Source: Methanobacteriota archaeon (GTDB taxonomy: Archaea; Thermoplasmatota; Thermoplasmata; SG8-5; DAIRED01). From it: a stretch of DNA of 64,000 bases. Below are positions 8,970 to 25,500 of the stretch, in pieces. The notes under the pieces were generated by a model. That model saw nothing but the letters and a program-made list of their open reading frames with translations, was not told the DNA's origin and searched no databases. Position 1 is the first letter of the stretch; each line of letters opens with the position of its first letter. Made by a program: the position numbers and the translations under genes. Where the stretch lies: positions 82,091 to 146,090 of the forward strand of contig JAZDNO010000006.1 in assembly GCA_043799545.1 (NCBI GenBank), read 5' to 3'.

Positions 8970-9843
8970 GCCCCTCCGTTGTTATTTCCAGCAAGAGCCT
9001 GGATCCGTGTCCGCGTATGCCCAAGGAGCGGCATCCCACGTATTTGCGCTTAAGTAGGTCCTTCTCCTCCATGCCGACGATGAGCTTCTTGAAGTAAACG
9101 CCGGAACCGGCCTTCAGCCCGCCCTCTTCGACCTTCTGGCCGTACATCCGCTCGACATCCTGGGCCAGCGCGTGCCTGCTGTTCCCCGCAAGCTCCCTCA
9201 GTGAATCCAGCACGGTCCTTGCATGGATGTCGGAATCGGATTTTCTGGCCCTCTTCGGACCCGGGCGCTGGGGGGCGCCGGCCCCCTGCATGCCATCTAT
9301 CTTCACATGGAGCGAGTCAAGGGCCTTCATAATCGCCGCGACGTCGCTTTCCAGCTTCTTGATAATTATCGCAACTTCTCCATCCGAAGGCATCCGGTCA
9401 TTTTTTCTTTGAGGATGGGCGGGGGCGCGCTCCTCGATTTTTAGACTACCCGATTCCAGCTTCGACAGCGCCTCTGCGCCAGCATCCGTGAGCTTGTAAA
9501 GCGATATTTCGACCGGTCGGTCGTCCTTCCGGCTCGCGTGGCTGCTGCGTTCCAGCAGGCCAAACCTCGTGAGCGCGGCGAGGGTGGCGTTGATGGCATT
9601 GTAACCCTTGCCCGTTTCCTTGCGGACGTAGCCCGGGGTGAAGGTGCCTCCGTGCAACCCGTCCGTGAGCTGGGACTTGGCCAGTTTGAGTATCTCGAAT
9701 TCGAACGGTGCGCAGGAAGTCAGCCTCTCGCTTTCGAAGGATTGGTCTGGTGATTCTTTGCTGGGGGTCATCGCTGTTACCAATAATCTAAAGGAGCCTC
9801 GATATTTATAATTTGCCGCGATATTGGCGAGCCTGATACTCAC
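8935..9843 (-). CDS. Hypothetical protein, possibly DNA-binding (winged-helix-like segments)
   Basis: 302-aa ORF with no catalytic motifs. Helix-rich segments resemble winged HTH. It lies divergent to cdc48. The true start may be internal (MTPSKESP). Confidence 0.35.
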
Positions 9844-9854
9844 ACTGCAAACGT

Positions 9855-9862
9855 TTTATATC
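9855..9862 (+). promoter_or_regulatory. Candidate TATA box for cdc48 (near-leaderless transcript)
   Basis: ttttatat centred about 32 nt upstream of the ATG at 9890, in an AT-rich intergenic region. A second tttataat lies at about 9805. Confidence 0.3.
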
Positions 9863-9889
9863 GCCGGGCGGTTTACGGAACGATTCGAA

Positions 9890-12112
9890 ATGGCCGACCG
9901 AAGCGTTGTCCTGAAGGTGGCAGAAGCGGCGCAGTCAGACGTCAGCCTGGGCCGGGCGCGAATCGATACGACCACCAGGATGGCAATAGGGGTGGAGGTC
10001 GGCGACATAGTCGAAATTCTGGGAAAGAAGAGCACGGTCGCCAAGATTTTCCGGACGCTTTCGGAGGACGAGGGCAAGGGGCTCATCCGCATCGATGGCC
10101 TGGTCCGCAGGAACGCTGGCGTTTCCATCGGGGACAAGGTTGAGGTGCGCAAGGCGGAGGTGGTCAATGCCACGAAGGTTACGATGGCTCCGATGCTGGC
10201 GGCCAACAAGCGCGTTACCTTCGGAGAGGGCATAGAGGCGTTCGTGCGGCGCGGTCTGAGCAAGCGCCCCCTGACGAAGGGCGACACGGTCGTTGTCCCT
10301 GGGATTGCGCTGATGGGCGGCGCGCTGCCGTTCATTGTGGTCAGCACCGCGCCCAAGGGTATTGTTCAGATTACAGACTCGACCGAAGTGCAGGTGAGGG
10401 AGGAGACCGCGGAGGCCGGGGAGACGGTGACCCAGAGCATCACGTACGAGGACATCGGCGGCCTGAAAGACGAGCTTCAGCGCGTGAGGGAGATGATAGA
10501 GCTCCCGTTGAAGCACCCAGAGCTGTTCCAGCGCCTCGGAATCGACCCCCCCAAAGGGGTTCTGCTCTACGGCCCGCCCGGGACTGGCAAGACGCTTATC
10601 GCGAAGGCGGTCGCTGGCGAGGCGGGGGCGAACTTCTACTCCATCCAGGGTCCTGAGATAATCTCCAAATACTACGGCCAGTCGGAGGAGAAGCTGCGCG
10701 AGAAGTTCGAGGAGGCCGAGCACAACGCGCCGTCGGTCATTTTCATCGACGAGCTGGACTCAATCGCGCCCAAGAGGGACGAGGTTCAGGGCGAGGTCGA
10801 GCGCCGCGTCGTGGCCCAGCTGCTGACGCTGATGGACGGCCTTAGCAACCGTGGGAATGTCATAGTCATCGCCGCCACCAACAGGGAGGACGCGATTGAT
10901 CCGGCGCTGAGGCGCCCGGGCCGCTTCGACCGCGAAATCGAAATCGGCGTGCCCGACCGCTTCGGACGCAAGGAAGTCATGCTGATTCACACTCGTGGCA
11001 TGCCCATAGAGGGAACCGAGGACGAGCGCGCCAAGCTTCTCGAAGAGCTTGCGGCGATAACATTCGGGTTCGTAGGCGCCGACCTGGCCGCGCTGGCCCG
11101 CGAGGCCGCGATGCGGGCCTTGCGCAGGTACCTGCCAGGGATAGACCTGGACAAGCCGATTCCCGCGGACGTGTTGGGCAAGATGATTGTGAAGCGCGAA
11201 GACTTCAAGGAGGCGCTGAAGGACGTGGAGCCGAGCGCGATGCGGGAGGTCCTGGTCGAGATACCGAAGGTCACTTGGGACGAGGTCGGAGGGCTGGAGG
11301 ACGCCAAGACGACTCTGAGGGAATCTGTAGAGATGCCCCTGAACAACCCGGCGGCTTTCGAGCGGATGGGAATCAGGCCGCCTCGCGGAATCCTTCTGTA
11401 CGGTCCGCCGGGGACAGGTAAGACTCTACTGGCCAAGGCAGTTGCCAACGAATCGCAGGCCAATTTCATATCCATCAAGGGTCCGGAGGTAATGTCGAAA
11501 TGGGTGGGGGAGAGCGAGAAGGCGGTGCGCCTGATTTTCAAGAAAGCCAAGCAGGTCGCGCCATCGATAGTGTTCCTGGACGAGATAGACGCAATCGCGC
11601 CGATGAGGGGCTCAAGCTCCGGAGATGCTGGAGCGACCGAGCGGGTGGTGAACCAGATATTGACATCAGTGGACGGGCTGGAATCGATGGAGGGCGTGGT
11701 CGTCCTGGCGGCGACGAACCGACCCGACATCCTGGATTCCGCGCTGCTCAGGCCCGGGCGTTTCGACAGGATGGTTCTCATCAGCGTGCCAGATAAGGAG
11801 ACGAGGCTCCAGATATTCAAGGTGCACACCAAGAAGATGCCCCTCAAGGGCGTGGACCTGAACCGCCTTGCTGACGTGACCAAAAACTACGTCGGTGCGG
11901 ACATCGAGGGCCTGTGCCGCGAGGCCGCCATGCAGGCGCTGCGCCAAGACCCGGCGGCCAAGGAAGTCACGACGGCGCACTTCGAGGCCGCGCTGAAGGT
12001 CATCAGGCCATCTGTCACCGAGGAAATAATCAAATACTACGAGGGGATTAAGGAGAAGATTGAAAGCGGGATAACCAAGAGCAAGCGAGACTCTTTTGGT
12101 TATTACGCCTAG
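9890..12112 (+). CDS. cdc48: Cdc48/VAT-type AAA+ ATPase (two AAA domains)
   Basis: N-terminal double-psi-barrel-like domain ([22 protein letters not shown]), two Walker A motifs GPPGTGKT, and two second-region-of-homology segments. Start placed at [13 protein letters not shown]. Confidence 0.9.
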
Positions 12113-12114
12113 AG

Positions 12115-12375
12115 GTGAATGCGATGAAGAAGTTTGCAGCGGAACTCCGCGGAAAGACCGTGATGACCAACGACGGCCAGATTCTAGGCATGATAGACAA
12201 CTTCGTCGTGGACACCATCACCGGCGAACTGCACCACGTTCTGGTGATTCCGGCCGAGGACGTCGAGACCCGGTTATTCAGGACGGACGCGGGCGGGCGC
12301 CTAGTGCTTCCGTTCCTGGAAATGAAGGCTGTACGGGATGTCGTGGTCATGAACGTGAAGCCGGGAAGGGCGTAG
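12115..12375 (+). CDS. PRC-barrel domain protein
   Basis: 86 aa. GKTVMTNDGQILGMIDNFVVDTITGELHHVLV is typical of the PRC-barrel fold. Starts 3 nt after the cdc48 stop. Confidence 0.5.
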   Translation: MNAMKKFAAELRGKTVMTNDGQILGMIDNFVVDTITGELHHVLVIPAEDVETRLFRTDAGGRLVLPFLEMKAVRDVVVMNVKPGRA

Positions 12376-12458: not shown

Positions 12459-15400
12459 TTAAATCCCCTTCTTCAGCTTTCTCGCCAGCCCCGGCGATAT
12501 GCCCTGTATGCGCGTAAGCTCTGCCATCTCCGCGCGGTGGATGTCGTCCTCCGAGCAGAATCCGGCTTCCCATAGGTCGTTGGCCTTCGAGTAGCCGATG
12601 CCCGGCACGGACATGAGTTTCTGGACGAACGATTCCCGGTCTCGCTTAGCGACCTTTTTCGTCCCCTTCTTCTTTGCTGCTCCCCCATCGCCAGATATCG
12701 CGGACTCCATCTCCCTTGCCAGGGCGTCTTCCTTGTCCTTGTATCTCAACCGCTCGCCGCAAGCGTGGCATTTCTTCGCACCGATGTCGTTCGTCTCGCC
12801 GCATTCCTGGCATGCCACGCCGGAACGTTTCCTCTCTTTCCTGGCCGCCGCCGGTGCGGGCGTCTTTCTCTCCGGAGGCTGCTCCTGGGCCTGCTTGCGA
12901 GCGGGTTTCGAAGCATCCTTCTCCGGGACGACCTCTCTCTCAACGCCTTCAATGTTCTTCATTGCGTCTGAGAAATCCGGAGCGAGCGAGAGCGCCTCCT
13001 CGAACGAGGCGATTGCGTCAGCTGTCTTGCCGGCGCGTTTCAATGCGATACCTCTGATGTTCCACAGTTCGGCGCTGCGCTCGTCGAGCTTCAACCCGTC
13101 GTCCGCTGCCCGAACCGCGCCTTTCAGGTCGTCCGATTCGAGCATAACGAACGATTTTATTGCGTAAAGCTCGGGAGATTTCACCGCTGCCAGCCCATCC
13201 CCGATGAGTTCCAGCGATTCTCCAGCCCTTCCCTGCCTCGCCAAAACGGAGGCCTTTCCCGCCAGTGCCGCGAGTGCGTCCGGACGCGCGTCCAGCGCCC
13301 GGTCGTAACTTTTAATCGCCTGGTCAAGCTCCCCGCGCGATGCGAACACGGCGCCGCGGTCGCACCAGGCTTCCCAGTGCCCCGGGTCGCTCTGCAAGGC
13401 CTTGTCCAGGCACATCAGGGCGTCGTCCAATTTTCCCGAAAGGTATAGGGTATTTCCGACCTTGTTCCAGAGGTCCGCGCTGGATTTGGCAAGCTCGGCC
13501 GCTTCTTCCAGCGCCTCCGAAGCCTTGCCCTTGCGCCCCCAAAAATCGAGCAGGTCCGCTTTCAGCAGGAGCAGCGGGACGGAGATGTCCGTCTTGGCGG
13601 TAATGGCGCTGAGCGCCTCCGATGCGGCGGCATAACGGCTTGAACCGAGCAGAGCTTCGGTCCTCCCCAGCGCAGCTGCGGTGTCGTCCGGGTCAAGGTC
13701 CAGGGCATCCTCGAAAAACGACGCGGCTTCCTCGTAATGCCCGAGCGCGTAGGCTGCCTCGCCTTGCATCCGCGGCAGACGGGACTCGCTCCTCAGAAGC
13801 ATGGCCTCGCCGAACCGCCCTATCGCGTCCTCGAACATCCCGAGGCGCATGCAGAGCTCGCCGAGGCCCACCAACTCGTCGAATTCCAGCACCTCGCGCT
13901 CCTCCGCCCTGGCATCCTCGATGCGCTCTATTTCCTCAGGCTCGCCAGCCGGCAAATCCGGCTCAAGCTCGGGCTCTTCCGTCTCCCTGAGGTCGGAGCC
14001 GCATCCCATGCAGAAGTTATCGCGCTCCCCGACATCGCCCCCGCACTCCGAGCATGTGAACAGGACAGTATCTTCACTCTCGGACTCGCCTGAACCCGGG
14101 GCGATGCCCGCGGGCGGCACCTCCGAAACTGACGGGACTGGCTCGGTCATTGAGACCGCTTCGAAAGGTGCAGGCTCGGGAACTGGTAACGGTGCCTGTA
14201 CTGGAACCTCGACGGGTTTAACGGGGACAGAGCGCTCGGCCTGCTGCTGGCGCTCCTTCGCTTCTCGCTGCTGCCGCAGCCTCTCCTCCTGCTCTTGGCG
14301 CAGGGCTCTCTCGGTCTTTTCCCGGAGCTCGATGGCGACATCCCAGCCGGGCTTCATGTCAAGAGCCAGCTCAAGCGAGTCGAGCGCAGCCTTGTACACG
14401 CCTGCGGCAACCAGGGCGCTCGCCTTCTGAGCATGCATCTCAGGCGTTTTGAACTTCTCGAGCACGCGGTCGTACGACTTCACGGCCTCCAGATGTCTGC
14501 CAAGGTCCTGGAGGAGCAGCCCGCGGTTCAGCCACGTGTCCAGGTTGTCGCCGCGCAGCTCGAGGGCCTTGTTGAAACTCGCCAGCGCCTCGTCGCTCCT
14601 GCCGAGGTGCTTGAGGGCGACGCCCCGGTTCGAGAGCGCGCGCTCGTTCTTCGGGTTTGACCGCAAAGCCTGGTCGAAGCAAAGCACGGCCTCCTCGTCC
14701 TTCCCCAGCTCGAGGAGAGTGGCCCCCTTGTTGTTCAACGCTTTTTCGTACGTCTTGTTCAGCTCCAGCGCCTTATCGTAGCAGGCGAGCTCGTCGTCGT
14801 GCTTGCCCTTCGAGTACAAAACGGCCCCGAGGTTGAACCAGCCCTCGTCCGAACCCGGGTTCCTGCGCAGCGCCTCCTCGTACGCTTCGACGGCCTTGTC
14901 GTTCTGCCCGAGCGCCGCCTGGCAGTTGCCGAGCATCGCGTGCGGGACGTCGTAGTCCGGCTTCAGCGCCGCCGCCTTGTCGAAGTACTCGATGGCCTTG
15001 CGGTAGTTGCCAGCCTCGTAGAAATCGTAGCCCCATTTCATTATCGAGTCCAGCTGCCCCATGCTCGGCAGCTGCCTGTTCCCGTCCTTCTCGAGGAACG
15101 ATTCCGTGGAGCGCCTGTCGAGCTCTTCTGTGAGCCCGAACTTGTCCAGCAGCTGGCCGAACCTCTCGGTGTCTGCGACCGCGACGTCGAACTGGGCGGC
15201 GTAGTTTTCCGCGTCCTTTGAAACGTCCCCGGCAGTGATGTAGATGCCCCTCGGCACGCCGGCCTTGCGCATCCTCTCCACGGACTTCTGTATGTCGTGC
15301 GGCCTGGCCGAATCGAGCCCGCGGGTCGCGAAGACGAGGTACTTGTCGCCGTTTGCGATTAGGTGCGCCTCCATCTCCATCGAGTCCCCCGAGGTTCGGA

Positions 15401-15557
15401 AACCTTTTGTCTCCAGCCCCATCCCCTTGAGAACCCTCTCCACGAACGAGCGGAACTCCGGCTCGCTGAGCTCGCGCAGCTCCTTTGCCAGCCTGGCCGG
15501 GTCGTGCGTCATGCTCCGGCCTCCTCGTCCAAACGCTTGCGGGACCTCTCGCGCCAT
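12459..15557 (-). CDS. Giant multidomain protein: N-terminal Mrr-cat-like restriction-endonuclease-fold domain, two TPR arrays separated by a Zn ribbon, C-terminal Zn ribbon and helix-hairpin-helix
   Basis: N-terminus EFRSFVERVLKGMGLET..DKYLVFATRG..GIYITAGDVS fits Mrr_cat. More than 15 TPR-like repeats. Internal Zn ribbon FTCSECGGD..CMGCG. C-terminal CQECGE..CHACGE ribbon and HhH (MSVPGIGYSKANDLWEAGF). Confidence 0.6.
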   Translation of the reverse strand: MAREVPQAFGRGGRSMTHDPARLAKELRELSEPEFRSFVERVLKGMGLETKGFRTSGDSMEMEAHLIANGDKYLVFATRGLDSARPHDIQKSVERMRKAGVPRGIYITAGDVSKDAENYAAQFDVAVADTERFGQLLDKFGLTEELDRRSTESFLEKDGNRQLPSMGQLDSIMKWGYDFYEAGNYRKAIEYFDKAAALKPDYDVPHAMLGNCQAALGQNDKAVEAYEEALRRNPGSDEGWFNLGAVLYSKGKHDDELACYDKALELNKTYEKALNNKGATLLELGKDEEAVLCFDQALRSNPKNERALSNRGVALKHLGRSDEALASFNKALELRGDNLDTWLNRGLLLQDLGRHLEAVKSYDRVLEKFKTPEMHAQKASALVAAGVYKAALDSLELALDMKPGWDVAIELREKTERALRQEQEERLRQQREAKERQQQAERSVPVKPVEVPVQAPLPVPEPAPFEAVSMTEPVPSVSEVPPAGIAPGSGESESEDTVLFTCSECGGDVGERDNFCMGCGSDLRETEEPELEPDLPAGEPEEIERIEDARAEEREVLEFDELVGLGELCMRLGMFEDAIGRFGEAMLLRSESRLPRMQGEAAYALGHYEEAASFFEDALDLDPDDTAAALGRTEALLGSSRYAAASEALSAITAKTDISVPLLLLKADLLDFWGRKGKASEALEEAAELAKSSADLWNKVGNTLYLSGKLDDALMCLDKALQSDPGHWEAWCDRGAVFASRGELDQAIKSYDRALDARPDALAALAGKASVLARQGRAGESLELIGDGLAAVKSPELYAIKSFVMLESDDLKGAVRAADDGLKLDERSAELWNIRGIALKRAGKTADAIASFEEALSLAPDFSDAMKNIEGVEREVVPEKDASKPARKQAQEQPPERKTPAPAAARKERKRSGVACQECGETNDIGAKKCHACGERLRYKDKEDALAREMESAISGDGGAAKKKGTKKVAKRDRESFVQKLMSVPGIGYSKANDLWEAGFCSEDDIHRAEMAELTRIQGISPGLARKLKKGI

Positions 15558-18253
15558 CGCTTTGCCTCTTCGAGGTTGGGGTTTATTCCGAGCGCCTTGT
15601 CATAGGAATCCAGGGCATCCCGATACCTCTCGAACTCGTGCATCGCGATGCCCCGTTTGAGCCAGATGGCACCGTCTCCGGGGGCAATCTCAATGGCCTT
15701 GTCGTACGCAGCCATCGATTTCTCCTGGTCGCCCATCTCCCGGAACGACTCGGCGACGCCCAGCCAGGCGTTGGAATTGCGGGGCTCCACCTGGGTTGCT
15801 ATCTTGAATATCCTGAGCGACTCGTTGAATCCCCCGTTCTCGAACAGAAGCCAAGACTTCTCCACTAAAGCAGAAGGGTTTTCCGGCTCGATGGAGAGGG
15901 CTTTGTCGAAGTCCGCCATTGACTTGTCGGACTGGCGCTGGTCCTTCAAAATCTGGCCCCTGAGTATCCAGCCCGGCGCGAAGTCCCCGTGCTCCTTCGT
16001 CAGGTTGTCCAATAGCTGCAATGCGGCTCCCCAACGCCCCATCGCCCTGTATGTCGAAGCCTTCCCGGCCATGGCTCTAGGGTCCGTTGGCTTTCTGGAC
16101 AGCACCTCGTCGTAGGCCTTCAGCGCGTCGTTGTACTTCTGCCTCTCGGACAAGGCGGCGGCTACACGGAGCCTCGGCTCGAAATAGTCCGGGTCGAGGG
16201 CTATCGCCCTCTCGTAAAGCTGGAGCGCGCCTCCCCAGCGGCCCTTGGCTTCGAGAACGGTTCCCTTCTTGTACCACGCCTCCGAGAGGTCCTCGTCAAG
16301 CTCCAGTGCCTTGTCGAAGCACTTGTACGCCTCGTCGAACTTGCCCAGCCCTTGGAAGGAGTCCCCTATCCCTAGCCAAGCGTCGGCGTAGCGCTCGTCA
16401 AGTTCCACCGCTTCGTTGAACGCGGAAAGCGAATCCTCGTATTTTTTCAATGCCAGCAACACTTCGCCCTTCTTGTTCCACAGTACTTGGTCCTCGTGGT
16501 CCTGGGCCAGCGCGGCCTCGTAGGCCTCGAGGGCGCTGTATGACTTGCCGATGCCGGTTAAGACGTCCCCCTTCGCTTCCAGGAGGATGAGGGATGTCGG
16601 CGTAGCGGCCAGCCACTCGTCCAGCAGCGCGAGCGAATCGTCGCTCCGCCCTGTGCCGGAGAGGGCGTTGGCCTTGCCCGCGATGGCCTCCTCGTTCCCG
16701 GGGCTGATGGCCAGCACTTCCTCGAATGTGGCGAGCGCGGACTCGAACTCGTTTTCTTCCAGAAGCTTGTCTGCCTGGTCCAGAAGGCTCTCGATTCTCG
16801 GGTCCGGCGCTGCCGAGAGAACCTCGTCTATCTCGCTCTCTATTTTATCCGAGTCTGCGCCCGCAGGCGTGGCTACAGGGGATTCGGGCGAGGTTTTGTC
16901 AAGCGTAAGGGGCTCCGGCTCTTTGACTTTTGCAGCGACGGTCTCATGTACGGATGGCTCCGGTTCTTTGGATTTCGGAACAATCTCGGGGGCTGGAGCG
17001 AGCGGCTGAGGTCTTTTTCCTAGATCCAGCTCCGGCAACGGCTCCGAATCATCATCTTCTTTTTCCGGCTCTGAAAGCCCGGAGAGGATGTCTGCAAGGC
17101 TGCGCTGCCTGGCTTGCTCTGCGACCGGGGGCTTCGGTGGTTCTTCATCTTTTGGCTCGGGTTGCGGGGCCAGTTCCGCCGGGATTGGCTGCGGCGGAGA
17201 GGCCATCTTTTCGGGAGGTGCGGGCGCTGTGGATTTGTCTCGTTTGACTTCGGGAGATAACTCCTTCTTTTCCGGTTGAATTACGGTCGCCCTCTCGATG
17301 TCTCCCAGCTTGGCAAGCGTATCCGCTCGTTTCTTAGCAATCGACTGGTCCGCAGGCCTCTTCTCGAGAGCCGCTTCGTAGCAGCGGCCGGCCTCCCTGT
17401 AACGCCCAATGGCGAAGAGCGAATCGCCCTTGAAAACCCATCCGTCCGGAGAATCTGGCTGCACGGCCAGGGCTCTCTCGAAGCACCGCAAGGCGTCCGG
17501 GTGGTTGTTCGCCTTCGCGAGCGCGGCCCCTCGTTCGAGCCACGTTTCAGGCGTGGGCTCCTCCGTCTCGGCAAGCGCCTCCGAATACTTTGCGGCCTCG
17601 CCAGCTCTTCCCGTCTCCTGGAGCAGGTACACCTTGGCCCGCAGCGCGTCAGGCTCCCTCGGGTCTATGGCCAGGGCGGCGTCGACAAGGGCCATGGAGC
17701 CGGATATGTTCATTGCGTTCGAAGATGCGCACCACTCCTTGTCGAGCACGGAAGAGAGTGCTTCGCCCGGCCGCCTCGCCCGCCACCTCAGCCAAGCGAA
17801 CTGAAGGCAAACGCGGGCAGAGGGAGGGGAATAGCTGAGCTCGAATCCGTGCTCGAGGCGGTCAAGGGCGGCGGACATCCATGCAAGATCCGCCTGCGAC
17901 ATGGGTGGCATGGGCTCTTTGGGGTCCAGCGGCACCCCGGCGAGGAGCATCGCGCCCGAAGCCGCGGAAAGGAACTCTGCGAACCTGGCCTGGCCCATCC
18001 CCGGCATGTCGTCCCTGTCCGGAGGGTCGAATCGCCCGGAATCAGATGCGATGGCTTGGCCCGAAGGCGATGGGTGCGCGAGAAAAACCATGGCGTTGCC
18101 CTCGCCCAGCCTACGGGACGCCCCCTTTCCAGAGGTCCCCCAGTCCATCGTCCAGAGTGGCGATTCTCGCGAGAGCTCGTCGCAGCAGCCGCCGCAGATG
18201 CGCACGCCCGAGGGAGCGCCCTCCCCGCATCTGAGGCACGTAGACGGGGCCAT
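15509..18253 (-). CDS. Giant TPR-repeat protein with N-terminal Zn ribbon and A/P/E-rich low-complexity linker
   Basis: N-terminus CLRCGEGAPSGVRICGGCC, an acidic/proline-rich segment, then more than 15 canonical TPR repeats (W-LG-Y..A...P motifs). Its 3' end overlaps the start of the 12459..15557 gene by 49 nt. Confidence 0.6.
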   Translation of the reverse strand: MAPSTCLRCGEGAPSGVRICGGCCDELSRESPLWTMDWGTSGKGASRRLGEGNAMVFLAHPSPSGQAIASDSGRFDPPDRDDMPGMGQARFAEFLSAASGAMLLAGVPLDPKEPMPPMSQADLAWMSAALDRLEHGFELSYSPPSARVCLQFAWLRWRARRPGEALSSVLDKEWCASSNAMNISGSMALVDAALAIDPREPDALRAKVYLLQETGRAGEAAKYSEALAETEEPTPETWLERGAALAKANNHPDALRCFERALAVQPDSPDGWVFKGDSLFAIGRYREAGRCYEAALEKRPADQSIAKKRADTLAKLGDIERATVIQPEKKELSPEVKRDKSTAPAPPEKMASPPQPIPAELAPQPEPKDEEPPKPPVAEQARQRSLADILSGLSEPEKEDDDSEPLPELDLGKRPQPLAPAPEIVPKSKEPEPSVHETVAAKVKEPEPLTLDKTSPESPVATPAGADSDKIESEIDEVLSAAPDPRIESLLDQADKLLEENEFESALATFEEVLAISPGNEEAIAGKANALSGTGRSDDSLALLDEWLAATPTSLILLEAKGDVLTGIGKSYSALEAYEAALAQDHEDQVLWNKKGEVLLALKKYEDSLSAFNEAVELDERYADAWLGIGDSFQGLGKFDEAYKCFDKALELDEDLSEAWYKKGTVLEAKGRWGGALQLYERAIALDPDYFEPRLRVAAALSERQKYNDALKAYDEVLSRKPTDPRAMAGKASTYRAMGRWGAALQLLDNLTKEHGDFAPGWILRGQILKDQRQSDKSMADFDKALSIEPENPSALVEKSWLLFENGGFNESLRIFKIATQVEPRNSNAWLGVAESFREMGDQEKSMAAYDKAIEIAPGDGAIWLKRGIAMHEFERYRDALDSYDKALGINPNLEEAKRWRERSRKRLDEEAGA

Positions 18254-18286
18254 TGTCGCTCACTATAAATTGGTAGAATAAAAACG

Positions 18287-19222
18287 TTAGTGAAGCTCCC
18301 CTTCAACGCCGATTAGCGCGCACGCGCGGCTTTTTCGCTCGCCTGGCCGAACCGGCCCGGAGCGTCCGAACGCCAGCACCTCCAGATTCGGCGCGGAATT
18401 CCTTAGCTCCGCAGCGACGGCCTCCTCCACGTCCCCGTCGCCCGGGCCTCCCACCAGCAGATACCCGCTTTTTATGCTCTCCGGTTCAAGCTCCATCCAT
18501 TCAGAGCCAACCAGCGCCCGTGCGAGCTCGAATCCGCGGTCTCCGCCGATGGCCGTCGCCACGTCGGCCTTGAGGAAGGAGGCGCGCGAGAAGACGCTTT
18601 TCAGCGCTGGCCGGTCCCCGTCGGTTCCCGCCGCAGCCACTTCGTGAGGGACCAGGAGTGCGAGTTCGGACACGATTTCCATGGCCCTGAGGAAAGGGAG
18701 TTTTGGGGCAATCTGGGAAATCCTGTCGTTGCGCAGGACCAGCAGCCCGTCGCACAGCCTCCTGAGCGTTTTGGCCTGCTCCAGCGCCGCCGCCCGCCTG
18801 GCGGGGGCTTCCACAGAGAACGGAAGGATGGCGATACACACAGAGATTGCGCCAGCTTCCTTAGCCACGCGGGACGCCAGGGCTGCGCAGCGCCACCCAG
18901 AATTTCCTCCCAGCCCGCACAAGGAAAAGAATACGTCGGTACCGGAAATTTCGCTAGCCAGCACCGATGCCGACCGCAGGTGAGGCACGACGGGAATCCT
19001 CGGGTCCGTGTCCGAGGCTCCGAGAAGCTCGTGCCCCGGCACCAGCATCGAATGCCCCGCAAGCTTGCCCAGACCTTTTCGGGGATTGCCATTGAGCGCG
19101 AAAGTGCCAATGCTCAAACGCCCAGACACGAATTTTAGGGAGTTGCATCCCGCTCCCCCGCAACCCGCGATCCCGATTTTCAGCGGTTTCGCGCCATCGC
19201 CAACCCTGAATATTTCAGTCAT
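18287..19222 (-). CDS. Divergent FtsZ/tubulin-superfamily protein (FtsZ-like, degenerate GTP-binding loops, no C-terminal domain)
   Basis: KIGIAGCGGAGCNSLKFV aligns with the FtsZ T1 loop (GVGGGGxNA). SLCGLGGNSGWRCAALASRVAKEAGAISVCIAILPFSVEAPARRAAALEQAKTLRRLCDGLLVLRNDRI aligns with the FtsZ T4 loop plus H5 to S7 (GMGGGTGTG...[11 protein letters not shown]...LIVIPNDKL). Confidence 0.6.
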   Translation of the reverse strand: MTEIFRVGDGAKPLKIGIAGCGGAGCNSLKFVSGRLSIGTFALNGNPRKGLGKLAGHSMLVPGHELLGASDTDPRIPVVPHLRSASVLASEISGTDVFFSLCGLGGNSGWRCAALASRVAKEAGAISVCIAILPFSVEAPARRAAALEQAKTLRRLCDGLLVLRNDRISQIAPKLPFLRAMEIVSELALLVPHEVAAAGTDGDRPALKSVFSRASFLKADVATAIGGDRGFELARALVGSEWMELEPESIKSGYLLVGGPGDGDVEEAVAAELRNSAPNLEVLAFGRSGPVRPGERKSRACALIGVEGELH

Positions 19223-20652
19223 GGAAGCCCTCCCGCTGCCCCCTTATTTGCTTTTTCCTCTTCAGGGTTGCGCTTCTCCGTTGGATGATCCTCCGTGGCA
19301 AGTCTCCCTCCTTGCTCGTGCAATGACACGGCATTCGCCGCGTCAAAGTCGGGGACGAGGGTCTCAACGTTGCGAACCGAGGGCATCAGGTAAAATATCG
19401 GGACGGCGAGCGTCGCCGCGAGCCCGCAGAAGAATATCATGAGGGCCATGCCAGCGCCGGGCCCGGAGCCGACAAGCCCTCCGAAAGTGGAAACGAGGGA
19501 GCCGCCCTCGGCCATCGACGGCTCGAAGTAGCCGTCTGCCAGCGGACCCGCCAATATCATCGCAATGGCCATCGACGCCTGCGCTATCAGTCGCCTTGCG
19601 GCGAAGACGCGCCCCTGCTTGTTCGGCGGGACCTTGGATTGCCAAATCGCCTGGCTGGAGCCGTTGCCTATCGGGAGGAACAGCATCGTCAGGAACCCGC
19701 CCGCAGTCCAGACGACGATCCCCCTTCCCAGGCCCAGAGTCAGGGTGATGCCCAGGCCCAGGAAGAAATCGGAAACCAGCAGACCGTAGATCCTCTTTTT
19801 CGGCCCGCCCCAGACCGCCAGCACTATCCCCCCGATGACCCCGCCCGCGCTCATGGCCGCCTGGACCGTCGCGAGGACGACGCCGTCGCTGGCGGTTCGT
19901 GCCAGAACCATCGGCGTCATCAGAATCATCACCGGCGCTGCAATCATGTTGATGACGAAGAACGACATCTGGAGAGACAGCAACGGCTTCCGTTCGCGGA
20001 TGAATTTGAAACCGTAGAGCGAGTCCTTTAAAACGCCCCTAACTCCCTTGCCGAGGTCAGCGGACTTCTCCGGCTGGGGGACCGTGACGGCAAGCAGCGT
20101 GCCGATTGCGAAGCAGAACGTCAGGATGTCGAAGACGAAGACTCCCGAGTAGCTGAACATCAATATGAACAGGACCGCGATTGGCGGGCCGAATATCCCC
20201 GAGGCGGACTCGGCGGCGGCCATCATCCCGCTCGTCCTGGCATAATGCTTCTTGTCCACGAGGGTCGACACGGCTGCCCCCCAAGCAGGCCACTGGAAAG
20301 CGGCAAAGGTCCCGATGAACGCGGCGAGGATGTAGAGATGCCATATCTGCAGGTTGCCGGTCCAATACAGCGCCAGGGTCGCCACGGTCCCCATCCCTGC
20401 AGTCAGGTCGCTCAGTATCATCGAGGTCTTGAGGTTCCAGCGGTCAACGAGCGCCCCCGCGACAGGGGTCATAATCATCATAGGGGCAAAGCTGCAGAAC
20501 ATCACCAGCGCGAGCGCCGTGGCCTGTCCGGTCATCTCCCACGCCCACAGGCTGAGGGCGAAGCCGGTCATGGTGCTTCCGAGCATGGAGACGAGCTGGC
20601 CGGACCAGATGATTGTGAACGCGGCCATGCCCTTCGGGCGCCTGGGAGCCAT
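19219..20652 (-). CDS. MFS-superfamily transporter
   Basis: 477 aa with 12 to 14 predicted TM helices in the MFS arrangement. Its stop overlaps the FtsZ-like start (ATGA). Confidence 0.6.
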   Translation of the reverse strand: MAPRRPKGMAAFTIIWSGQLVSMLGSTMTGFALSLWAWEMTGQATALALVMFCSFAPMMIMTPVAGALVDRWNLKTSMILSDLTAGMGTVATLALYWTGNLQIWHLYILAAFIGTFAAFQWPAWGAAVSTLVDKKHYARTSGMMAAAESASGIFGPPIAVLFILMFSYSGVFVFDILTFCFAIGTLLAVTVPQPEKSADLGKGVRGVLKDSLYGFKFIRERKPLLSLQMSFFVINMIAAPVMILMTPMVLARTASDGVVLATVQAAMSAGGVIGGIVLAVWGGPKKRIYGLLVSDFFLGLGITLTLGLGRGIVVWTAGGFLTMLFLPIGNGSSQAIWQSKVPPNKQGRVFAARRLIAQASMAIAMILAGPLADGYFEPSMAEGGSLVSTFGGLVGSGPGAGMALMIFFCGLAATLAVPIFYLMPSVRNVETLVPDFDAANAVSLHEQGGRLATEDHPTEKRNPEEEKANKGAAGGLP

Positions 20653-20730
20653 GCTCCAGTCATCGGGCTATGCGCATAATAACCTTGCCTTTCCAGTTTC
20701 GGACACCTGCAATGAACTGCTATAAAACCG

Positions 20731-21693
20731 GTGGCGGATGACGGTCCGATGCCCATTGAGTTTATCGAAGCAAAGTCGCTTGTGCGCGTGAACAAGCGCA
20801 GCGGCGACGTCAACCTCAATCCCTACCAGGGCTGCTTTCACGACTGCGCCTACTGTGACGGCAAGGCCGAGAGGTACAACATGCACGAGGATTTCGCAAC
20901 AAGACTCCGGGCGAAGGCGAACGCTCCAGAACTGCTTGAGAAGTTCCTGCGCGGCAAGGGATTCTCGCCGGTGAACAGGGAGAGGACTGGGACGCTGGCC
21001 GATTTCAGCGACGAAGCCAAAAAGGCACTGAGGGGCGCCTCCCCAAGAAAGTTCACAATCAACATCTCGGGCGGCGTGTGCGACATCTACCAGCCAGCCG
21101 AAGCCGAGATAGGCCTGTCGCGGAGGCTCATGCAGCTCGTGTACGATTACGACTTCCCGATATTCCTGCTCACGAAGAACAAGCTGGTCCTGAAGGATTT
21201 GGACCTGCTGCGCAAGATAAACGTGAGCCAGGGCGCGACAGTGGCCATGTCTGTGACGCTCGCCGACGAGAGTTTGCGGGAGAAGTTCGAGCCTGGCGCC
21301 AGCACCACCCAGGAACGGTTCGAGACGCTGCGCACGCTCCATGAATCAGGTATCAAAACCGGTATCTGGGCGCTCCCACTTCTTCCGTGGATTGGGGACA
21401 CGGACGTAAACGTAGATGCAATCATCTCGTGCGCGAAAGAATCGGGCGTCGACTGGATGATATTCAGCGGCCTCACTCTCAAGCCAGGAAGGCAAAAGGA
21501 GGCCTTCATGCGGCTCATCGCGAAGGATTTTCCGGGACTCGAGGAGAAGTACCGTCGACTCTACGCCAACGAGAGCAAGTACGGAACGCCTGACCTCGAA
21601 GCGGCGAGGGCGATGGGCCTGCCCGACCCTTGGCTCAAAGGAAAGCGGATGGCAAAGAAATACGGCATCGCCTACAAAAGCTGGCGCGATTGA
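20731..21693 (+). CDS. Radical SAM protein, spore-photoproduct-lyase-like (COG1533-type)
   Basis: CFHDCAYCDG (CxxxCxxC-like cluster motif in the SPL family arrangement) and a TIM-barrel-like C-terminal region. Confidence 0.6.
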   Translation: MADDGPMPIEFIEAKSLVRVNKRSGDVNLNPYQGCFHDCAYCDGKAERYNMHEDFATRLRAKANAPELLEKFLRGKGFSPVNRERTGTLADFSDEAKKALRGASPRKFTINISGGVCDIYQPAEAEIGLSRRLMQLVYDYDFPIFLLTKNKLVLKDLDLLRKINVSQGATVAMSVTLADESLREKFEPGASTTQERFETLRTLHESGIKTGIWALPLLPWIGDTDVNVDAIISCAKESGVDWMIFSGLTLKPGRQKEAFMRLIAKDFPGLEEKYRRLYANESKYGTPDLEAARAMGLPDPWLKGKRMAKKYGIAYKSWRD

Positions 21694-21810: not shown

Positions 21811-22836
21811 ATGCGTTCTGTGAGCGGGGACGAGCTCGAGGCGGTCGCCAGGTACGTGGCCAAGGCATCCACCGAGAATTTCGAAGGGGCCGGAGGCTCG
21901 GACGCCGAGGGGGGCATCCTCCAGGTGAAAGGGCCGATACTCCCGGAGCGATTCATTCCGATAAATGGCCCCCGCCCGTGCGAGCGCTCGGCGGCTATAG
22001 ACGGCGGTTCGGCGACGGTGCTGGATTGCGGCTCGTTCGTCGTCGGGGCAATCTCGGCCGGGCATGCGATTTCCGACGCTCACGGAGCCTGCCGGACCGA
22101 TTCGCATATCCGGCTCATTGGCGCTTCGCATGCGGACAAGAAATCGATATACCGTGAAATTTTCTCGAAAGCCATGGGAGCCGAGCCGACGGACTACCCC
22201 AAGAGCCTGGACTCGCTCGTCGGCCGCTTGCGCAACATCGCAGAGCTGGAGGAGGCCGCCAAGGTCGTTTCAGGGGCGCCGGAGGGCTCGCTCGTGATGA
22301 TTGACGGTGCGCTCTGGGCCGGCCTCGGGGACTTCGCCCCGCTGATAGAGAAGCTGGTAAAATCCGCGAGCCAGCGGAGCGTATGCCTCGCCGGCGTGAG
22401 CAAGCGAAGCATGCTCTACTTCGGATACCGCCCGCTCGTTCCATATCTCGCGCGGCTGGGGAAAAAAACGCTCGGCGACTCGCTCTGGGCGTATCCAGTC
22501 GCCTTGGCCGAGTACGAGGGCAGGACCTTCGGCGCGACGTACGTGGCGCATCTGCACCCGATGGCCCAGTTCGCCTTCAGGGTCGATGTGAACCCGATGC
22601 CTGGGTTTGCTGCGGACGAGACAATAGCAATGCTCGCAGGGCTTTCTGACGACCCGGGATATGTCGGTTACCCGTACCCCCTGGCTCGGGTGCACAACGA
22701 GGTCGCGATAGGCGAAGAGACGAGACGGGAACTGCAGATGGGACTGAAAAGGACATTGACGTCCTCGGGCGGCGACGCAGCGCTGATTGAGGAGTTCTCG
22801 CGCAACTTTCATGATATTCTTGACGGAGGGATTTGA
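21811..22836 (+). CDS. nurA: NurA 5'-3' nuclease
   Basis: The NurA-domain DGS motif (AIDGGSATVLD) is present. The gene sits immediately upstream of herA-mre11-rad50, a syntenic group known to be conserved in archaea. Confidence 0.7.
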   Translation: MRSVSGDELEAVARYVAKASTENFEGAGGSDAEGGILQVKGPILPERFIPINGPRPCERSAAIDGGSATVLDCGSFVVGAISAGHAISDAHGACRTDSHIRLIGASHADKKSIYREIFSKAMGAEPTDYPKSLDSLVGRLRNIAELEEAAKVVSGAPEGSLVMIDGALWAGLGDFAPLIEKLVKSASQRSVCLAGVSKRSMLYFGYRPLVPYLARLGKKTLGDSLWAYPVALAEYEGRTFGATYVAHLHPMAQFAFRVDVNPMPGFAADETIAMLAGLSDDPGYVGYPYPLARVHNEVAIGEETRRELQMGLKRTLTSSGGDAALIEEFSRNFHDILDGGI

Positions 22837-24378
22837 TTGGAGTATATCGGTCGTGTTGTGGGGCGGTGCGTTCGGGAAATAAGGTTCAGGGCCGTATACG
22901 GGGAGGACTTCCAGCTCGGCGAAATTCTCGTTGTCGGGGACGAGGAGAGGAAGCGGAGCCTTCTCGCCCGCGTCATCGACATAGAGTACGGCGCCGACGC
23001 CTCTGGCGACGGCTGGTCCGAGCAGGTCGCGGGGAACATGATGCAGGGCGACTCGAAGGGCGGGTACGAGCTGCGAGAGAAGGAGCGCAGGCTCTTCTCG
23101 ACCGGAGTTTGCACCCCGCTGGGCTTCGTGGCGGACGGCAAGTTCAGAAAGCCCAAGTCGCTCGTCCCGCACTTCTCCAAGGTCAGGCGCGCGTCGCAAA
23201 GCGACTTCCAGTTCCTCAGTCAGGAAATGGGCGACGTCGAGGTCGGCGTCCTGAGGAGCGGGGAGCGCAAGCTAGACATCCGCGTGGGCGTCGACGGCTC
23301 GAAATTCCCCAGCCACGTTGGAGTCTTCGCAACGACTGGCATGGGCAAGAGCAACCTCATGAAGACCCTCGTGGCGAGCGTCATGCGCGGGCGGCGCTAC
23401 GGGATGCTCGTCCTGGACCCTCATGGGGAATACTTCGCGGGCCAGCCGGAGTACAGGGGGCTGAGCCACCTGGCGGACGCGGCCGAGCGGCTCGTGGTTT
23501 TCTCAGGAAGGAAGCTGCCCGGGGCGCACAACACAATCGCCGTTTCCTCCAGAGAAATCAACATCCAGGACCTCCTGAACCTCCAGGAGTACAGCGACGC
23601 CCAGCGGGAAGCCCTGCACGCCCTGCGGGGCGAGCTCGGGGAGAACTGGCTCATGGATGCGCACGAGGCAGACGCATCTGACCTGGAAACGCGCCTGAGG
23701 CGCCGCTTCCACATAGATACGATTAACGTCATCAAGCGCAGGATCGAACGGGTGATGTCGAGCGGCAAAATCACAACCGACAGGGGCATCTCCATGACCC
23801 GCACGGTAATAGGGGCCCTGAAAGATGCGAAGGTCGTCCTGGTCGATACCAGCAGCATGCCGGAAATGGAGGAGCTGCTCGTGAGCACAGTCATTGCGCG
23901 GGCAGTGCTCGAGCATTACCAGCACCTCTACGAAACGCCCGAGGAATTCGCCGCGCTGCCCCCGGTCCTCATAACGTTGGAGGAGGCTCAGCGTGTGCTG
24001 GACAAGTCTCGCGGCACAGTCTTCTCGCGCATAGCCCGCGAGGGGCGAAAATTCAAGGTCGGATTATGCGCCGTTTCGCAGCAGCCCAAGCTGATAGACA
24101 ACCAGGTCATCTCGCAGTTCAACACGCTGTTCGTCATGGGTCTGGCGGACAAGCGCGACCGGGAGATTCTGCGCGACGCGTCGAAGCAGGACATCGCCGA
24201 CCTGGACAACGAGATACAGACGTTGATGGTCGGCGAGGCGCTCGTCACCTCGCCTTTCGTTCCTTTCGCCTTGCCCGCGGCCGTTCACTGTTTTGAAGAA
24301 TACCTGACAGCTCTGAACGGACAGAAGGAGAAAGACGGAAAGAGGGCGCGGGCGAAGCCCGACAAGGGGTTCTACTGA
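22837..24378 (+). CDS. herA: HerA bipolar DNA helicase (FtsK/HerA-superfamily ATPase)
   Basis: Walker A GMGKSN, Walker B VLVDT, and the HerA barrel N-terminus. Start is 1 nt after the nurA stop. Confidence 0.85.
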   Translation: MEYIGRVVGRCVREIRFRAVYGEDFQLGEILVVGDEERKRSLLARVIDIEYGADASGDGWSEQVAGNMMQGDSKGGYELREKERRLFSTGVCTPLGFVADGKFRKPKSLVPHFSKVRRASQSDFQFLSQEMGDVEVGVLRSGERKLDIRVGVDGSKFPSHVGVFATTGMGKSNLMKTLVASVMRGRRYGMLVLDPHGEYFAGQPEYRGLSHLADAAERLVVFSGRKLPGAHNTIAVSSREINIQDLLNLQEYSDAQREALHALRGELGENWLMDAHEADASDLETRLRRRFHIDTINVIKRRIERVMSSGKITTDRGISMTRTVIGALKDAKVVLVDTSSMPEMEELLVSTVIARAVLEHYQHLYETPEEFAALPPVLITLEEAQRVLDKSRGTVFSRIAREGRKFKVGLCAVSQQPKLIDNQVISQFNTLFVMGLADKRDREILRDASKQDIADLDNEIQTLMVGEALVTSPFVPFALPAAVHCFEEYLTALNGQKEKDGKRARAKPDKGFY

Positions 24379-25499
24379 TGCGATTCGTTCACATCTCTGA
24401 TACCCACCTGGGGCACACGGCATACACCAAGCTGGATGAGAACGGTTACAACCAGCGCGAGGCCGACGTTTTCGACGCGTTCAAGCAGGGGGTGGACAAA
24501 GCGCTGGCCCTGAAGGTCGACGCCGTGCTACACACGGGCGACCTGTTCGATTCCATCAGGCCGTCCAACAGGGCGATGCACTTCGCCCTGGAGCAGATTC
24601 TGCGCCTCTCGGAGGCGGAGGTGCCGTTCGTGGCAATCGCCGGCAACCACTCGTCGCCGCGGCTGCGCGAAACGGGGAGCGTCTTCAGGCTCTTCGAGCA
24701 CTTGAAAGGCGTCCGCGTAGTCTATGCCGGGGCGTACGAGCAAGTGGACGTCGGGGACGTCGCCGTCCACTGCGTGCCCCACTGCGCCACCCAGGACGCT
24801 TTCGCAGAGGAAGTCCGCAAGGTGTCGCCCTTGCCTGGAAAAACCAACGTGGCCATGCTGCACTGCGGCGTCAGCGGCGTCGAGCGCTTCGCGATGGGGG
24901 AGTTCAACGAGAACCTGCTGCCGAGCGGGCAGCTGTGGCCAGAGATGGAATACATCGCGCTGGGTCATTTCCACGACAGGACAATAGTCGCCGCGAACGC
25001 GGCTTACGCCGGCTCGACCGAGCGGATGAGCTTCAACGAGGCGGGGAAGGAAAAAGGGGTCGTTGAGGTGAGCGTTCCGAGGATGTCCATGGAGTTCCAC
25101 GGACTGAAAATCAGGGAGATGGTAGACTTTGGCAAACTGGATTGCGCCGGTCTGACGAACGCCGACATCATCCGGACAGTCGAAGGGCGGCTTCTTTCCT
25201 CAAAGGCGGATGGCAAAATCATGCGCATCAGGCTGACGGGCATCCCGCGCAGCCAGGTCGACGGCCTCGACCAAAAACGCCTAAGGAGCGCGGTGAGCGG
25301 GGCGCTCCACTTCGAGCTCAGAATCGAGACGCTGGAGGAGTGCGCCGGTGCGCAGGGCACGCAGGCTGCAATCGGTGATTTGCGCAACGAGTTCGAGGCG
25401 TTCGTATCGGGGACGCCGGTAGAGCGCTTGGACAAGGCCGAGCTCCTGAAGCTCGGGCGGGGATACATCGACGGAGCCATGAACGAAGCGGGGGGCTAG
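24378..25499 (+). CDS. mre11: Mre11 DNA double-strand break repair nuclease
   Basis: Calcineurin-like phosphoesterase motifs (MRFVHISDTHLGH, GDLFD, GNHS, HCGV, LGHFH). Overlaps the herA stop by 1 nt. Confidence 0.85.
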   Translation: MRFVHISDTHLGHTAYTKLDENGYNQREADVFDAFKQGVDKALALKVDAVLHTGDLFDSIRPSNRAMHFALEQILRLSEAEVPFVAIAGNHSSPRLRETGSVFRLFEHLKGVRVVYAGAYEQVDVGDVAVHCVPHCATQDAFAEEVRKVSPLPGKTNVAMLHCGVSGVERFAMGEFNENLLPSGQLWPEMEYIALGHFHDRTIVAANAAYAGSTERMSFNEAGKEKGVVEVSVPRMSMEFHGLKIREMVDFGKLDCAGLTNADIIRTVEGRLLSSKADGKIMRIRLTGIPRSQVDGLDQKRLRSAVSGALHFELRIETLEECAGAQGTQAAIGDLRNEFEAFVSGTPVERLDKAELLKLGRGYIDGAMNEAGG

Positions 25500-25500
25500 A

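Follow-up and report, generated by a model that had tools for sequence, protein, structure and literature searches.

The question raised by this locus is whether four closely spaced minus-strand genes of an archaeon, at positions 12,459 to 20,652 of a 64,000-nucleotide stretch of contig JAZDNO010000006.1 (hereafter the window), form one system or are separate units lying side by side. In the direction of transcription they encode an MFS transporter, a 311-aa FtsZ-like protein that we call FtsZl, and two giant proteins with TPR arrays, TPR1 and TPR2. A sequence-only reading had taken the four genes to be one tightly coupled operon and a candidate undescribed system. All four consecutive open reading frames (ORFs) are present where that reading placed them; being long and having many homologs, they are not chance ORFs, and the domains assigned to them (MFS, tubulin/FtsZ, TPR arrays, Mrr, HhH and Zn ribbons) were all matched by Pfam. 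Comparison with homologous loci, which are numbered L001 and so on, suggests to us a different arrangement, namely a composite of separately conserved modules that stand side by side in one Thermoplasmatota lineage, rather than a fixed four-gene system. In this account, to which we give a little less than even confidence, FtsZl has a DNA repair operon as its stable neighbour, the TPR pair has its own promoter, and the MFS gene came in as a passenger. The source of the window is an NCBI metagenome-assembled genome (MAG) labelled 'Methanobacteriota archaeon', the relatives all come from Thermoplasmatota, Thermoplasmata or Methanomassiliicoccales MAGs, and all of the sequences are from uncultivated genomes.

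Structure prediction bore out the assignment of the 311-aa protein to the FtsZ fold. The AlphaFold2 (AF2) model of FtsZl, built with 12 homologs, reached a pLDDT of 89.2 and a pTM of 0.90, and its top match among PDB structures in Foldseek was M. jannaschii FtsZ (1w59; E 1.3e-21, TM 0.75, ~313 columns); the best matches were all to FtsZ structures, with E ~1e-21, TM 0.71-0.79 and 304-324 alignment columns. Since the alignment to 1w59 spans ~313 columns, both FtsZ domains are present in FtsZl. The sole Pfam match was Tubulin (PF00091; 40 bits, cut-off 33), and TIGR00065 (ftsZ) matched residues 11-184 with 75.5 bits, below its equivalog cut-off of 295.2. When a profile of the FtsZl family was compared with the PDB, M. 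jannaschii FtsZ1 was matched at 1e-44, bacterial FtsZ at ~1e-29 and the CetZ-like chain 4b45 at 6e-6; the last of these entries, which the PDB labels 'cell division protein FtsZ', we take to be CetZ.

Residue alignment to M. jannaschii FtsZ and to group consensus sequences was used to establish the state of each motif. The sequence-only reading had described the GTP-binding loops as eroded, which holds for T3, T4 and T7 but not for T1, as the T1 loop is intact (GCGGAGCN). The T6 Asn is also retained, and T5 reads PFSVEA. Half of T4 is kept (GLGGxSGWR, with GLGGNSGWR in the window, versus GGGTGTG), the Gly-rich GAGxxP of T3 is lost, with ASDTDP in place of GAGGNP, and the guanine-contacting Asp of H7 is replaced by Ser. 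The T7 motif (NxDxxD) carries a 5-residue deletion and retains one of its three N/D residues, the middle Asp (D203), the last Asp being changed to Ala; the lost residues correspond to N207 and D212 of E. coli. FtsZl has neither C-terminal linker nor tail and stops just 5 residues beyond the globular core. The protein is thus neither a canonical FtsZ nor a CetZ, as had been proposed, because it scores under the TIGR00065 cut-off, departs from FtsZ at T3, T4, T7 and the tail, and lies far nearer to FtsZ1 than to 4b45 by profile. In FtsZ, the T7 Asp residues of one subunit activate GTP hydrolysis in the next subunit, and the protein attaches to membrane anchors such as SepF through its C-terminal tail. 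As the T7 residues and the tail are lost, FtsZ biochemistry would predict that FtsZl has kept its nucleotide binding and its contacts with FtsZ-type subunits, hydrolyses poorly and is not tethered via SepF. Such a subunit might modulate or cap FtsZ polymers, or build stable filaments that are not bound to the membrane.

When 1.84 billion representative proteins were searched with a profile for relatives of FtsZl, ~30 proteins of ~300 aa scored 150-256 bits, compared with ~120 bits for the bulk of FtsZ. These short proteins share the motifs GCGGAGCN, GLGGxxGxW, PF(S/T)xEG, NDxLL and SPW. We also surveyed GTDB loci that match one peptide pattern, taking the best 80 of 505 confirmed hits. With the hidden Markov model (HMM) of the family, the short forms in these 80 loci scored 273-375 bits, matched from profile position 1-14 and ended 0-9 residues after the core (L016, with 243 bits and 4 residues after the core, was an outlier), whereas canonical FtsZ reached 160-250 bits and ran on for 23-83 residues past the core. 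In a neighbour-joining tree, canonical FtsZ had a clade to itself except for one truncated ORF at a contig end (L034), and the other short forms lay outside it. FtsZl thus belongs to a phylum-wide Thermoplasmatota family of FtsZ paralogs of ~305 aa without the C-terminal tail.

The strongest association of this family, which the sequence-only reading had overlooked, is with an Mre11-Rad50-HerA-NurA operon that lies directly upstream and is divergently oriented. Searches with profiles of HerA, NurA, Mre11 and Rad50 found repair genes 0.1-4 kb upstream of FtsZl, on the other strand, in 23 of the 37 short-FtsZl loci outside the window lineage (L009-L055); 6 of the 37 were too short to tell, and among the informative loci, those whose upstream sequence extends for 4 kb or more, the fraction was 23/31. 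The same searches found the operon beside none of ~45 canonical FtsZ loci. In the window lineage the repair operon is likewise divergent beside FtsZl. The order of the operon varies by clade (HerA-NurA-Rad50-Mre11 next to FtsZl; Rad50-Mre11-HerA-NurA next to FtsZl; or Rad50-Mre11-transporter-HerA next to FtsZl), as does the other flank of FtsZl, which holds Dph5 (diphthine synthase), Trm5-like and dCTP deaminase genes, AroE and other shikimate-pathway genes, or the TPR pair. FtsZl identity between clades is only 24-33%. That the junction is kept at such divergence while the operon order and the other flank change argues for selection on the adjacency of FtsZl and the repair genes, not frozen synteny. 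Inspection of the FtsZl/repair intergenic regions by eye for a shared regulatory motif showed only TATA-like boxes ~30 nt before the starts in common, with no palindrome across clades.

Expression of FtsZl would then share a control region with the break-resection machinery, which suggests a role for FtsZl in coupling chromosome damage or segregation to division. Its most likely role, in our view, would be to couple chromosome breaks or segregation to FtsZ-based division, with the Mre11-Rad50-HerA-NurA operon as its stable partner. We know of no account of how FtsZ-dividing archaea coordinate division with chromosome integrity, and a tail-less, T7-defective FtsZ paralog that holds its place beside a resection operon through genome rearrangement is a concrete, testable candidate for coupling the two.

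Within the window lineage we compared seven contexts (the window, L001/2/3/90, L004, L005/6, L007, L102 and L103). FtsZl, TPR1 and TPR2 lie together on one strand in all seven, at 49-77% FtsZl identity, and the wider block is syntenic, with Rad50-Mre11-HerA-NurA divergent upstream and the PRC-barrel and Cdc48 genes convergent downstream. A survey of the neighbours of FtsZ-like homologs, which had been proposed as a check, gave a divided answer: the trio was found in 7/7 lineage contexts and in 0/37 of the more distant short-FtsZl loci.

The junctions between the genes in the window look more like those of two coupled pairs than of a single, evenly coupled operon. The reported overlap of the MFS stop with the FtsZl start was read from the sequence as ccATGAc, with GGGAGGG in front, and the gap between the FtsZl stop and the TPR1 ATG is exactly 33 nt, as given before. 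On the other hand, the reported 49-nt overlap of TPR1 and TPR2 holds solely for the longest TPR2 ORF (12459-15557); the second ATG (Met16, at 15512) forms an ATGA overlap with the TPR1 stop and has GGAGG in front. NCBI protein P0166 of this MAG corresponds to this 1017-aa form with a 100% match, and the overlap is 4 nt in the gene calls of all the relatives. Two ATGA-coupled pairs are thus split by the FtsZl-TPR1 spacer, which has 33% GC in a genome of ~60% GC and a length of 32-35 nt in six contexts and 68 nt in L005. In L001 and L102 the spacer sequence CGTTTTTATTCTACCAATTTATAGTGAGCGACA and the TPR1 ATG behind it are the same as in the window, and L004, L007 and L103 have a recognisable version of them. 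The spacer carries a TATA-like box (TTTTTATT) at -31..-24 of the TPR1 ATG; it opens, next to the FtsZl stop, with a run of five T that could act as an oligo-T terminator. There is no Shine-Dalgarno (SD) sequence before TPR1, whereas both ATGA-coupled genes, FtsZl and TPR2, have one. In L087, which has no FtsZl gene upstream of its TPR1 ortholog, a similar AT-rich element (GATTTTTATGCTATGGCGTTTATGTAGCGG) stands before that ortholog. By position, the TATA-like boxes before TPR1 and the MFS gene fit the archaeal TATA box of a leaderless transcript. Since the two ATGA couplings are separated by a conserved, TATA-like, AT-rich spacer without an SD sequence that is also seen in L087, we read the locus as two putative transcription units, MFS-FtsZl and TPR1-TPR2, which makes the earlier idea of one tightly coupled operon doubtful.

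The MFS gene is the least constant member of the four. Its product scored 181.8 bits against TIGR00900, under the family cut-off. The gene is intact in two of the seven lineage contexts, the window and L005/L006; in L004 (9813-9989) and L007 (2600-2749) the first 45-50 codons are left, in L103 (517-966) there is a 149-aa ORF with an in-frame internal deletion, and from L001 and L102 it is absent. The upstream element GGCAAGGTTATTATGCGC, within which the TATA-like box lies, directly precedes the FtsZl ATG in L001 and L102, both without the MFS gene, which suggests that FtsZl is served by this promoter region and that the MFS gene is a dispensable insert. The decay series in L004, L007 and L103 has in each case kept the promoter and the 5′ end of the MFS gene ahead of FtsZl. 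The promoter function of the box in GGCAAGGTTATTATGCGC would accord with archaeal promoter geometry. The MFS gene may therefore have entered as a passenger between FtsZl and its promoter, its translation being coupled to that of FtsZl in the window, and have been lost repeatedly in relatives; with deletion or decay in 5/7 contexts, it does not qualify as a member of a conserved system.

The TPR pair, for its part, extends beyond the window lineage. A full-length search of an index of 5.8 billion proteins, in which the 161-aa Mrr-like fragment alone gave a single match, returned TPR2 orthologs of full architecture (970-1080 aa) at 32-44% identity in other Thermoplasmatota MAGs. In L087, L088 and L089 the TPR2 ortholog is directly preceded by a TPR1-type giant, abutting or overlapping by one base, that has the TPR1 layout and a C-terminal 'KWRExSAKRL' ending, and neither FtsZl nor the repair operon was found within 10 kb of the pair in these three loci, where the pairs have 33-44% identity. 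The public TPR1 starts in L088 and L089 are too late, as the sequence shortly before the called ATG (~7040-7126 and ~6740-6834, respectively) encodes a CxxC...CxxC zinc ribbon. A metagenome scan was made with the TPR2 stretch containing MKWG[NY]DF, the Mrr-like domain alone having no sufficiently conserved stretch; of the 12 loci found, FtsZl was present only in one identical to L002. In total, no FtsZl was seen at any of ~13 distinct distant loci that carry a whole or fragmentary TPR2-family gene, some of these loci lying on contigs that are short or truncated. Because the pair is found without FtsZl in distant genomes, we regard TPR1-TPR2 as the stable unit, which would be an ATGA-coupled pair with its own TATA-like promoter. 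The FtsZ-like/TPR partnership put forward before is thus constant in the window lineage, but each partner occurs without the other outside it.

Five of the other metagenome loci carry a shorter pair, in which a 283-aa protein (starting CVACG...GVLMCSRC) overlaps by 4 nt a 739-aa Mrr-like/TPR protein, followed by a convergent PRC-barrel gene and Cdc48. In L095 the short form of TPR1 has 283 aa and a CxxCG..GVxxCxxC start, and the short Mrr-TPR form lies beside a PRC-barrel gene (11971-12327) and Cdc48 (12346-14544). The PRC-barrel gene is at the same position in L001, L004, L005 and L102, and Cdc48 is convergent with TPR2-family genes in two separate lineages. TPR1-TPR2 would thus be an additional uncharacterised family of predicted DNA-anchored scaffolds, conserved across Thermoplasmatota and twice found beside PRC-barrel and Cdc48 genes. 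Directly upstream of the short pair in L095 there is an Elp3-like radical SAM/GNAT gene (7340-8884, plus strand); the radical SAM gene of the window is of a different type. In L087, 2 kb from the TPR1-TPR2 pair, a 565-aa protein (15293-16990, minus strand) carries a double zinc ribbon, HHH_5 and TPRs, which suggests that paralogous Zn-ribbon/TPR/HhH scaffolds exist in these genomes.

TPR1 begins with a Zn ribbon (CxxC...CxxCC), followed by a ~170-aa domain without a Pfam match, 3-4 TPRs, a Pro/Glu-rich disordered linker of ~160 aa and ~11 TPRs. TPR2 runs from an Mrr-like PD-(D/E)xK fold through TPRs, a coiled coil with a disordered region, a Zn ribbon, further TPRs, a second Zn ribbon and a Lys-rich linker to (HhH)2. 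Pfam (Mrr_cat, 37.3 bits, residues 27-136; HHH_5, 38.3 bits, residues 979-1030; Zn_ribbon_3 twice) and the fold search agree on the Mrr-like fold, Zn ribbons and C-terminal HhH that had been recognised before. The model of the N-terminal domain (pLDDT 88.6) matched MspJI (E 9e-6), EcoT38I, the Mrr-like AF1548 (8e-4) and the non-catalytic N-domain of RPB5 in Foldseek; only the fold search was informative here, since the sequence search of this domain against the PDB gave nothing significant (AF1548, E 0.31). We aligned 19 full-length TPR2 orthologs of 32-100% identity, in which the beta-3 motif reads YLVFATR / FLIRAARG, so that the (D/E) of (D/E)xK is replaced by A/V/F and the K by R; E48 is the sole conserved acidic residue of the domain, and R64 is also conserved. 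With the (D/E)xK catalytic residues not conserved, the Mrr-like domain is very probably not a nuclease, although it has the restriction-endonuclease fold noted earlier. All 19 orthologs keep the C-terminal Zn ribbon, the Lys-rich linker and both HhH motifs (vPGiGyaKA ... isGI..LArKiKk), and TPR2 probably binds DNA non-specifically via (HhH)2. TPR2 would be anchored to DNA in this way, perhaps also via its catalytically dead Mrr-like domain, and the TPR arrays, disordered linkers and Zn ribbons of both giants could serve as protein-docking surfaces. The sequence-only reading had held that the arrangement matches no characterised module, and in the literature searched we found no description of the FtsZl family, its repair-operon link or the TPR pair, although a HerA-FtsZ neighbourhood may have been noted in Iyer et al. 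2004 on the FtsK-HerA superfamily.

Several points weigh against the composite account. The closeness of FtsZl and TPR1 on one strand in 7/7 contexts, down to 49% FtsZl identity, exceeds what is expected for unrelated neighbours, and it is plausible that the DNA theme common to both modules reflects a real functional link in this lineage. Read-through transcription between the two units is possible, and the promoter assignments are taken from sequence alone. The repair operon is missing at 8 informative short-FtsZl loci, the GTDB survey covered the best hits to a single pattern, the tree was a simple neighbour-joining one without support values, and gene calls in the GC-rich loci are crude.

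The first of these points leads to the idea that the trio is a genuine functional unit in the lineage, in which TPR1 and TPR2 would dock FtsZl via Zn ribbons or TPRs and tie its filaments to DNA via the HhH and Mrr-like domains. This DNA-associated filament-scaffold for chromosome handling, which is the earlier idea minus the MFS transporter, we consider a tentative possibility. It draws on the constant strand and the spacer lengths given above, on the DNA-binding domains in TPR2, and on the precedent of a Zn-ribbon protein with a disordered linker that binds FtsZ1. In addition, FtsZl of the window lineage differs at positions that are conserved in the rest of the short family, with GGxSGWR in T4, EA rather than EG in T5, and NDRI rather than NDxLL. 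Nonetheless, each partner is found without the other in other lineages, and the conserved promoter-like element separates the partners and travels with the TPR pair.

At the other extreme, there may be no functional link at all, FtsZl being a division paralog that is degenerating or redundant, the TPR giants generic scaffolds for protein interactions, and the nearness of the repair operon, TPR pair and Cdc48 a matter of inherited gene order. The organisms all come from a single phylum, TPR proteins abound, housekeeping genes lie downstream of FtsZl in other clades, and the 8 informative loci without the repair operon point in the same direction. We nevertheless consider this unlikely, because the FtsZl-repair junction is kept at 24-33% identity while the operon order and all other neighbours change, because the conserved motifs and the confident full-fold model indicate that the short family is under selection, and because the end domains of TPR2 are conserved across the 19 orthologs, at 32-100% identity.

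A more ambitious proposal joins all of these genes, Mre11-Rad50-HerA-NurA, FtsZl, TPR1-TPR2 and PRC-barrel-Cdc48, into one Thermoplasmatota centre that couples chromosome integrity to division. In such a centre, FtsZl, poor in hydrolysis and without a tether, would be made with the repair machinery, docked on DNA by the Zn-ribbon/TPR/HhH giants, and used to halt or reposition the FtsZ ring. If this were true, an FtsZ paralog would form the basis of a checkpoint for DNA damage or nucleoid occlusion in archaea; we regard it as improbable on present evidence.

A role in anti-virus defence, which had been among the candidates, has very little to recommend it. It would have the Mrr-like domain as an effector nuclease and the TPRs as sensors, in keeping with the Mrr_cat match, the structural likeness to the endonuclease domains of MspJI and EcoT38I, and the occurrence of TPR sensors in some defence proteins. 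However, the (D/E)xK residues are not conserved, PADLOC gives nothing but generic TPR/PrimPol-TPR matches, the surroundings are of housekeeping type with vertically conserved synteny, and no relatives of either the FtsZl or the TPR family were found among 2.9 million viral contigs. The envelope-remodelling role also suggested earlier, in which FtsZl would work with the MFS transporter by analogy with FtsZl1 neighbourhoods and for which the ATGA coupling of the two genes in the window could speak, is scarcely credible, since the MFS gene is deleted or decayed in 5/7 contexts while FtsZl, TPR1 and TPR2 persist, the Tubulin_2 domain and vWA/OmpA neighbours of FtsZl1 were not found, and FtsZl has no membrane-tether tail. 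We thus return to the composite account as our preferred one, in which the tight spacing in one genome overstated the unity of a four-gene 'system'.

Features of the locus and its neighbourhood, in window coordinates
Feature	Coordinates	Strand	Description
Cdc48/VCP-type AAA+ ATPase gene	9824..12112	+	upstream of the PRC gene; Pfam CDC48_N, CDC48_2, AAA x2
PRC-barrel protein gene	12115..12375	+	86 aa, convergent on TPR2; Pfam PRC 37.9 bits
TPR2	12459..15512	-	1017 aa from the ATGA-overlapping start
TPR1	15509..18253	-	914 aa; Pfam TPR arrays
FtsZl-TPR1 spacer	18254..18286	-	33 nt, 33% GC, CGTTTTTATTCTACCAATTTATAGTGAGCGACA
Short tail-less FtsZ paralog FtsZl	18287..19222	-	311 aa; Pfam Tubulin, AF2, Foldseek
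MFS transporter gene	19219..20652	-	477 aa, DHA3/Mef-like; Pfam MFS_1 104.6 bits
TATA-like TTATTAT box	20676..20682	-	-30..-24 of the MFS ATG, within the conserved element GGCAAGGTTATTATGCGC
Radical SAM gene	20731..21693	+	divergent from the MFS gene; Pfam Radical_SAM 41.5 bits
NurA-HerA-Mre11-Rad50 double-strand-break end-resection operon	21811..27921	+	divergent from the FtsZl side; Pfam NurA, DUF87/HerA, Metallophos, SMC_N/Rad50_zn_hook

An ORF at 12096-12422 (plus strand) was rejected as the gene convergent on TPR2, as it has no Pfam match and the true PRC gene is in another frame (12115-12375). The radical SAM gene is present in L005 and L102 and missing from L001 and L004. Between its 3′ end and NurA (~21700-21790), and in L001 at ~5870-5990, there is a conserved element, GCGAAACTGTG...CGTTTCGCTTTGAGAATCT, with the inverted repeat GCGAAAC/GTTTCGC, which in L001 is a tandem direct duplication of ~56 nt and which may function as a terminator or regulatory site or encode a small RNA. 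Elsewhere in the window, a 2253-aa ORF (56229-62990, minus strand) contains CARDB repeats and, towards its C-terminus, double zinc ribbons (DZR, Zn_ribbon), so that the genome has another giant Zn-ribbon protein, and an 804-aa protein (44210-46624, plus strand) has a C-terminal KaiC/DUF7504 ATPase domain and 560 N-terminal aa without a Pfam match.

Among known systems, FtsZl is best compared with canonical archaeal FtsZ1 (M. jannaschii, PDB 1fsz/1w59), with which it shares the two-domain fold (TM 0.75), T1 GCGGAGxN, T5 PFxxE and the T6 Asn; it differs in having ~22% identity, a lost T3, altered T4 and T7, no linker or tail, and an extra N-terminal strand. The genomic partner is also different, being Mre11-Rad50-HerA-NurA for FtsZl and a secE-nusG/ribosomal context for canonical FtsZ. 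CetZ is, like FtsZl, an archaeal non-division paralog of the tubulin superfamily, and the profile matches (6e-6 to 4b45 and 1e-44 to FtsZ1) set the two apart. A TubZ/PhuZ-type tubulin of plasmid or phage segregation was also considered and rejected, given the chromosomal housekeeping context and the lack of relatives in the viral contigs. FtsZl1 and FtsZl2 resemble the window protein as divergent FtsZ-superfamily proteins defined by genome context, but FtsZl1 has ~1000 aa, a coiled coil, no recognisable T6-H7, a Tubulin_2 domain and vWA/OmpA/GTPase neighbours, and FtsZl2 is proteobacterial with a ~300-aa C-terminal extension (Makarova & Koonin 2010, PMC2875224). With 311 aa, PF00091 as its only match, a full FtsZ C-terminal domain and MFS, TPR and repair neighbours, the window protein is neither of these. 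Judged by its sequence features, FtsZl is a divergent member of the FtsZ superfamily that lacks four defining features of canonical FtsZ and falls outside the CetZ, FtsZl1/2 and TubZ-type families.

The Mrr/MspJI-type domains share their fold with residues 1-125 of TPR2, in which beta-3 reads h-h-x-(A/V/F)-x-R rather than h-h-(D/E)-x-K. SulA and YneA are damage-induced inhibitors of FtsZ, and the logic proposed here for FtsZl, a repair-tied factor that would act on FtsZ polymers, is the same; the proteins are unrelated, FtsZl is itself an FtsZ paralog, and its regulation by damage is only proposed. Another parallel is provided by the truncated FtsZ paralogs of Hyphomicrobiales, an ancient FtsZ duplicate without C-terminal parts that was proposed to tune division, not drive it (bioRxiv 10.1101/2025.09.29.679267). 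Both are FtsZ duplicates without C-terminal parts, but the Hyphomicrobiales one is bacterial and of independent origin, with no link to a repair operon or TPR scaffolds reported in its abstract. In Haloferax, a Zn ribbon of CdpC, a disordered-linker protein that anchors FtsZ1, binds FtsZ1 (bioRxiv 10.64898/2026.07.16.738847); CdpC and TPR1-TPR2 both join Zn ribbons by long disordered linkers, CdpC is without TPR, Mrr-like and HhH domains, and the likeness noted here is one of layout. Similarly, CdpB PRC-barrel proteins act in FtsZ-based division, their genes in H. volcanii not being clustered with division genes (bioRxiv 10.1101/2023.03.28.534543), and the PRC-barrel gene at the end of the window locus resembles them by domain type. 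Without our counting either precedent as evidence, CdpC and CdpB make a division-related role for the neighbourhood plausible by analogy.

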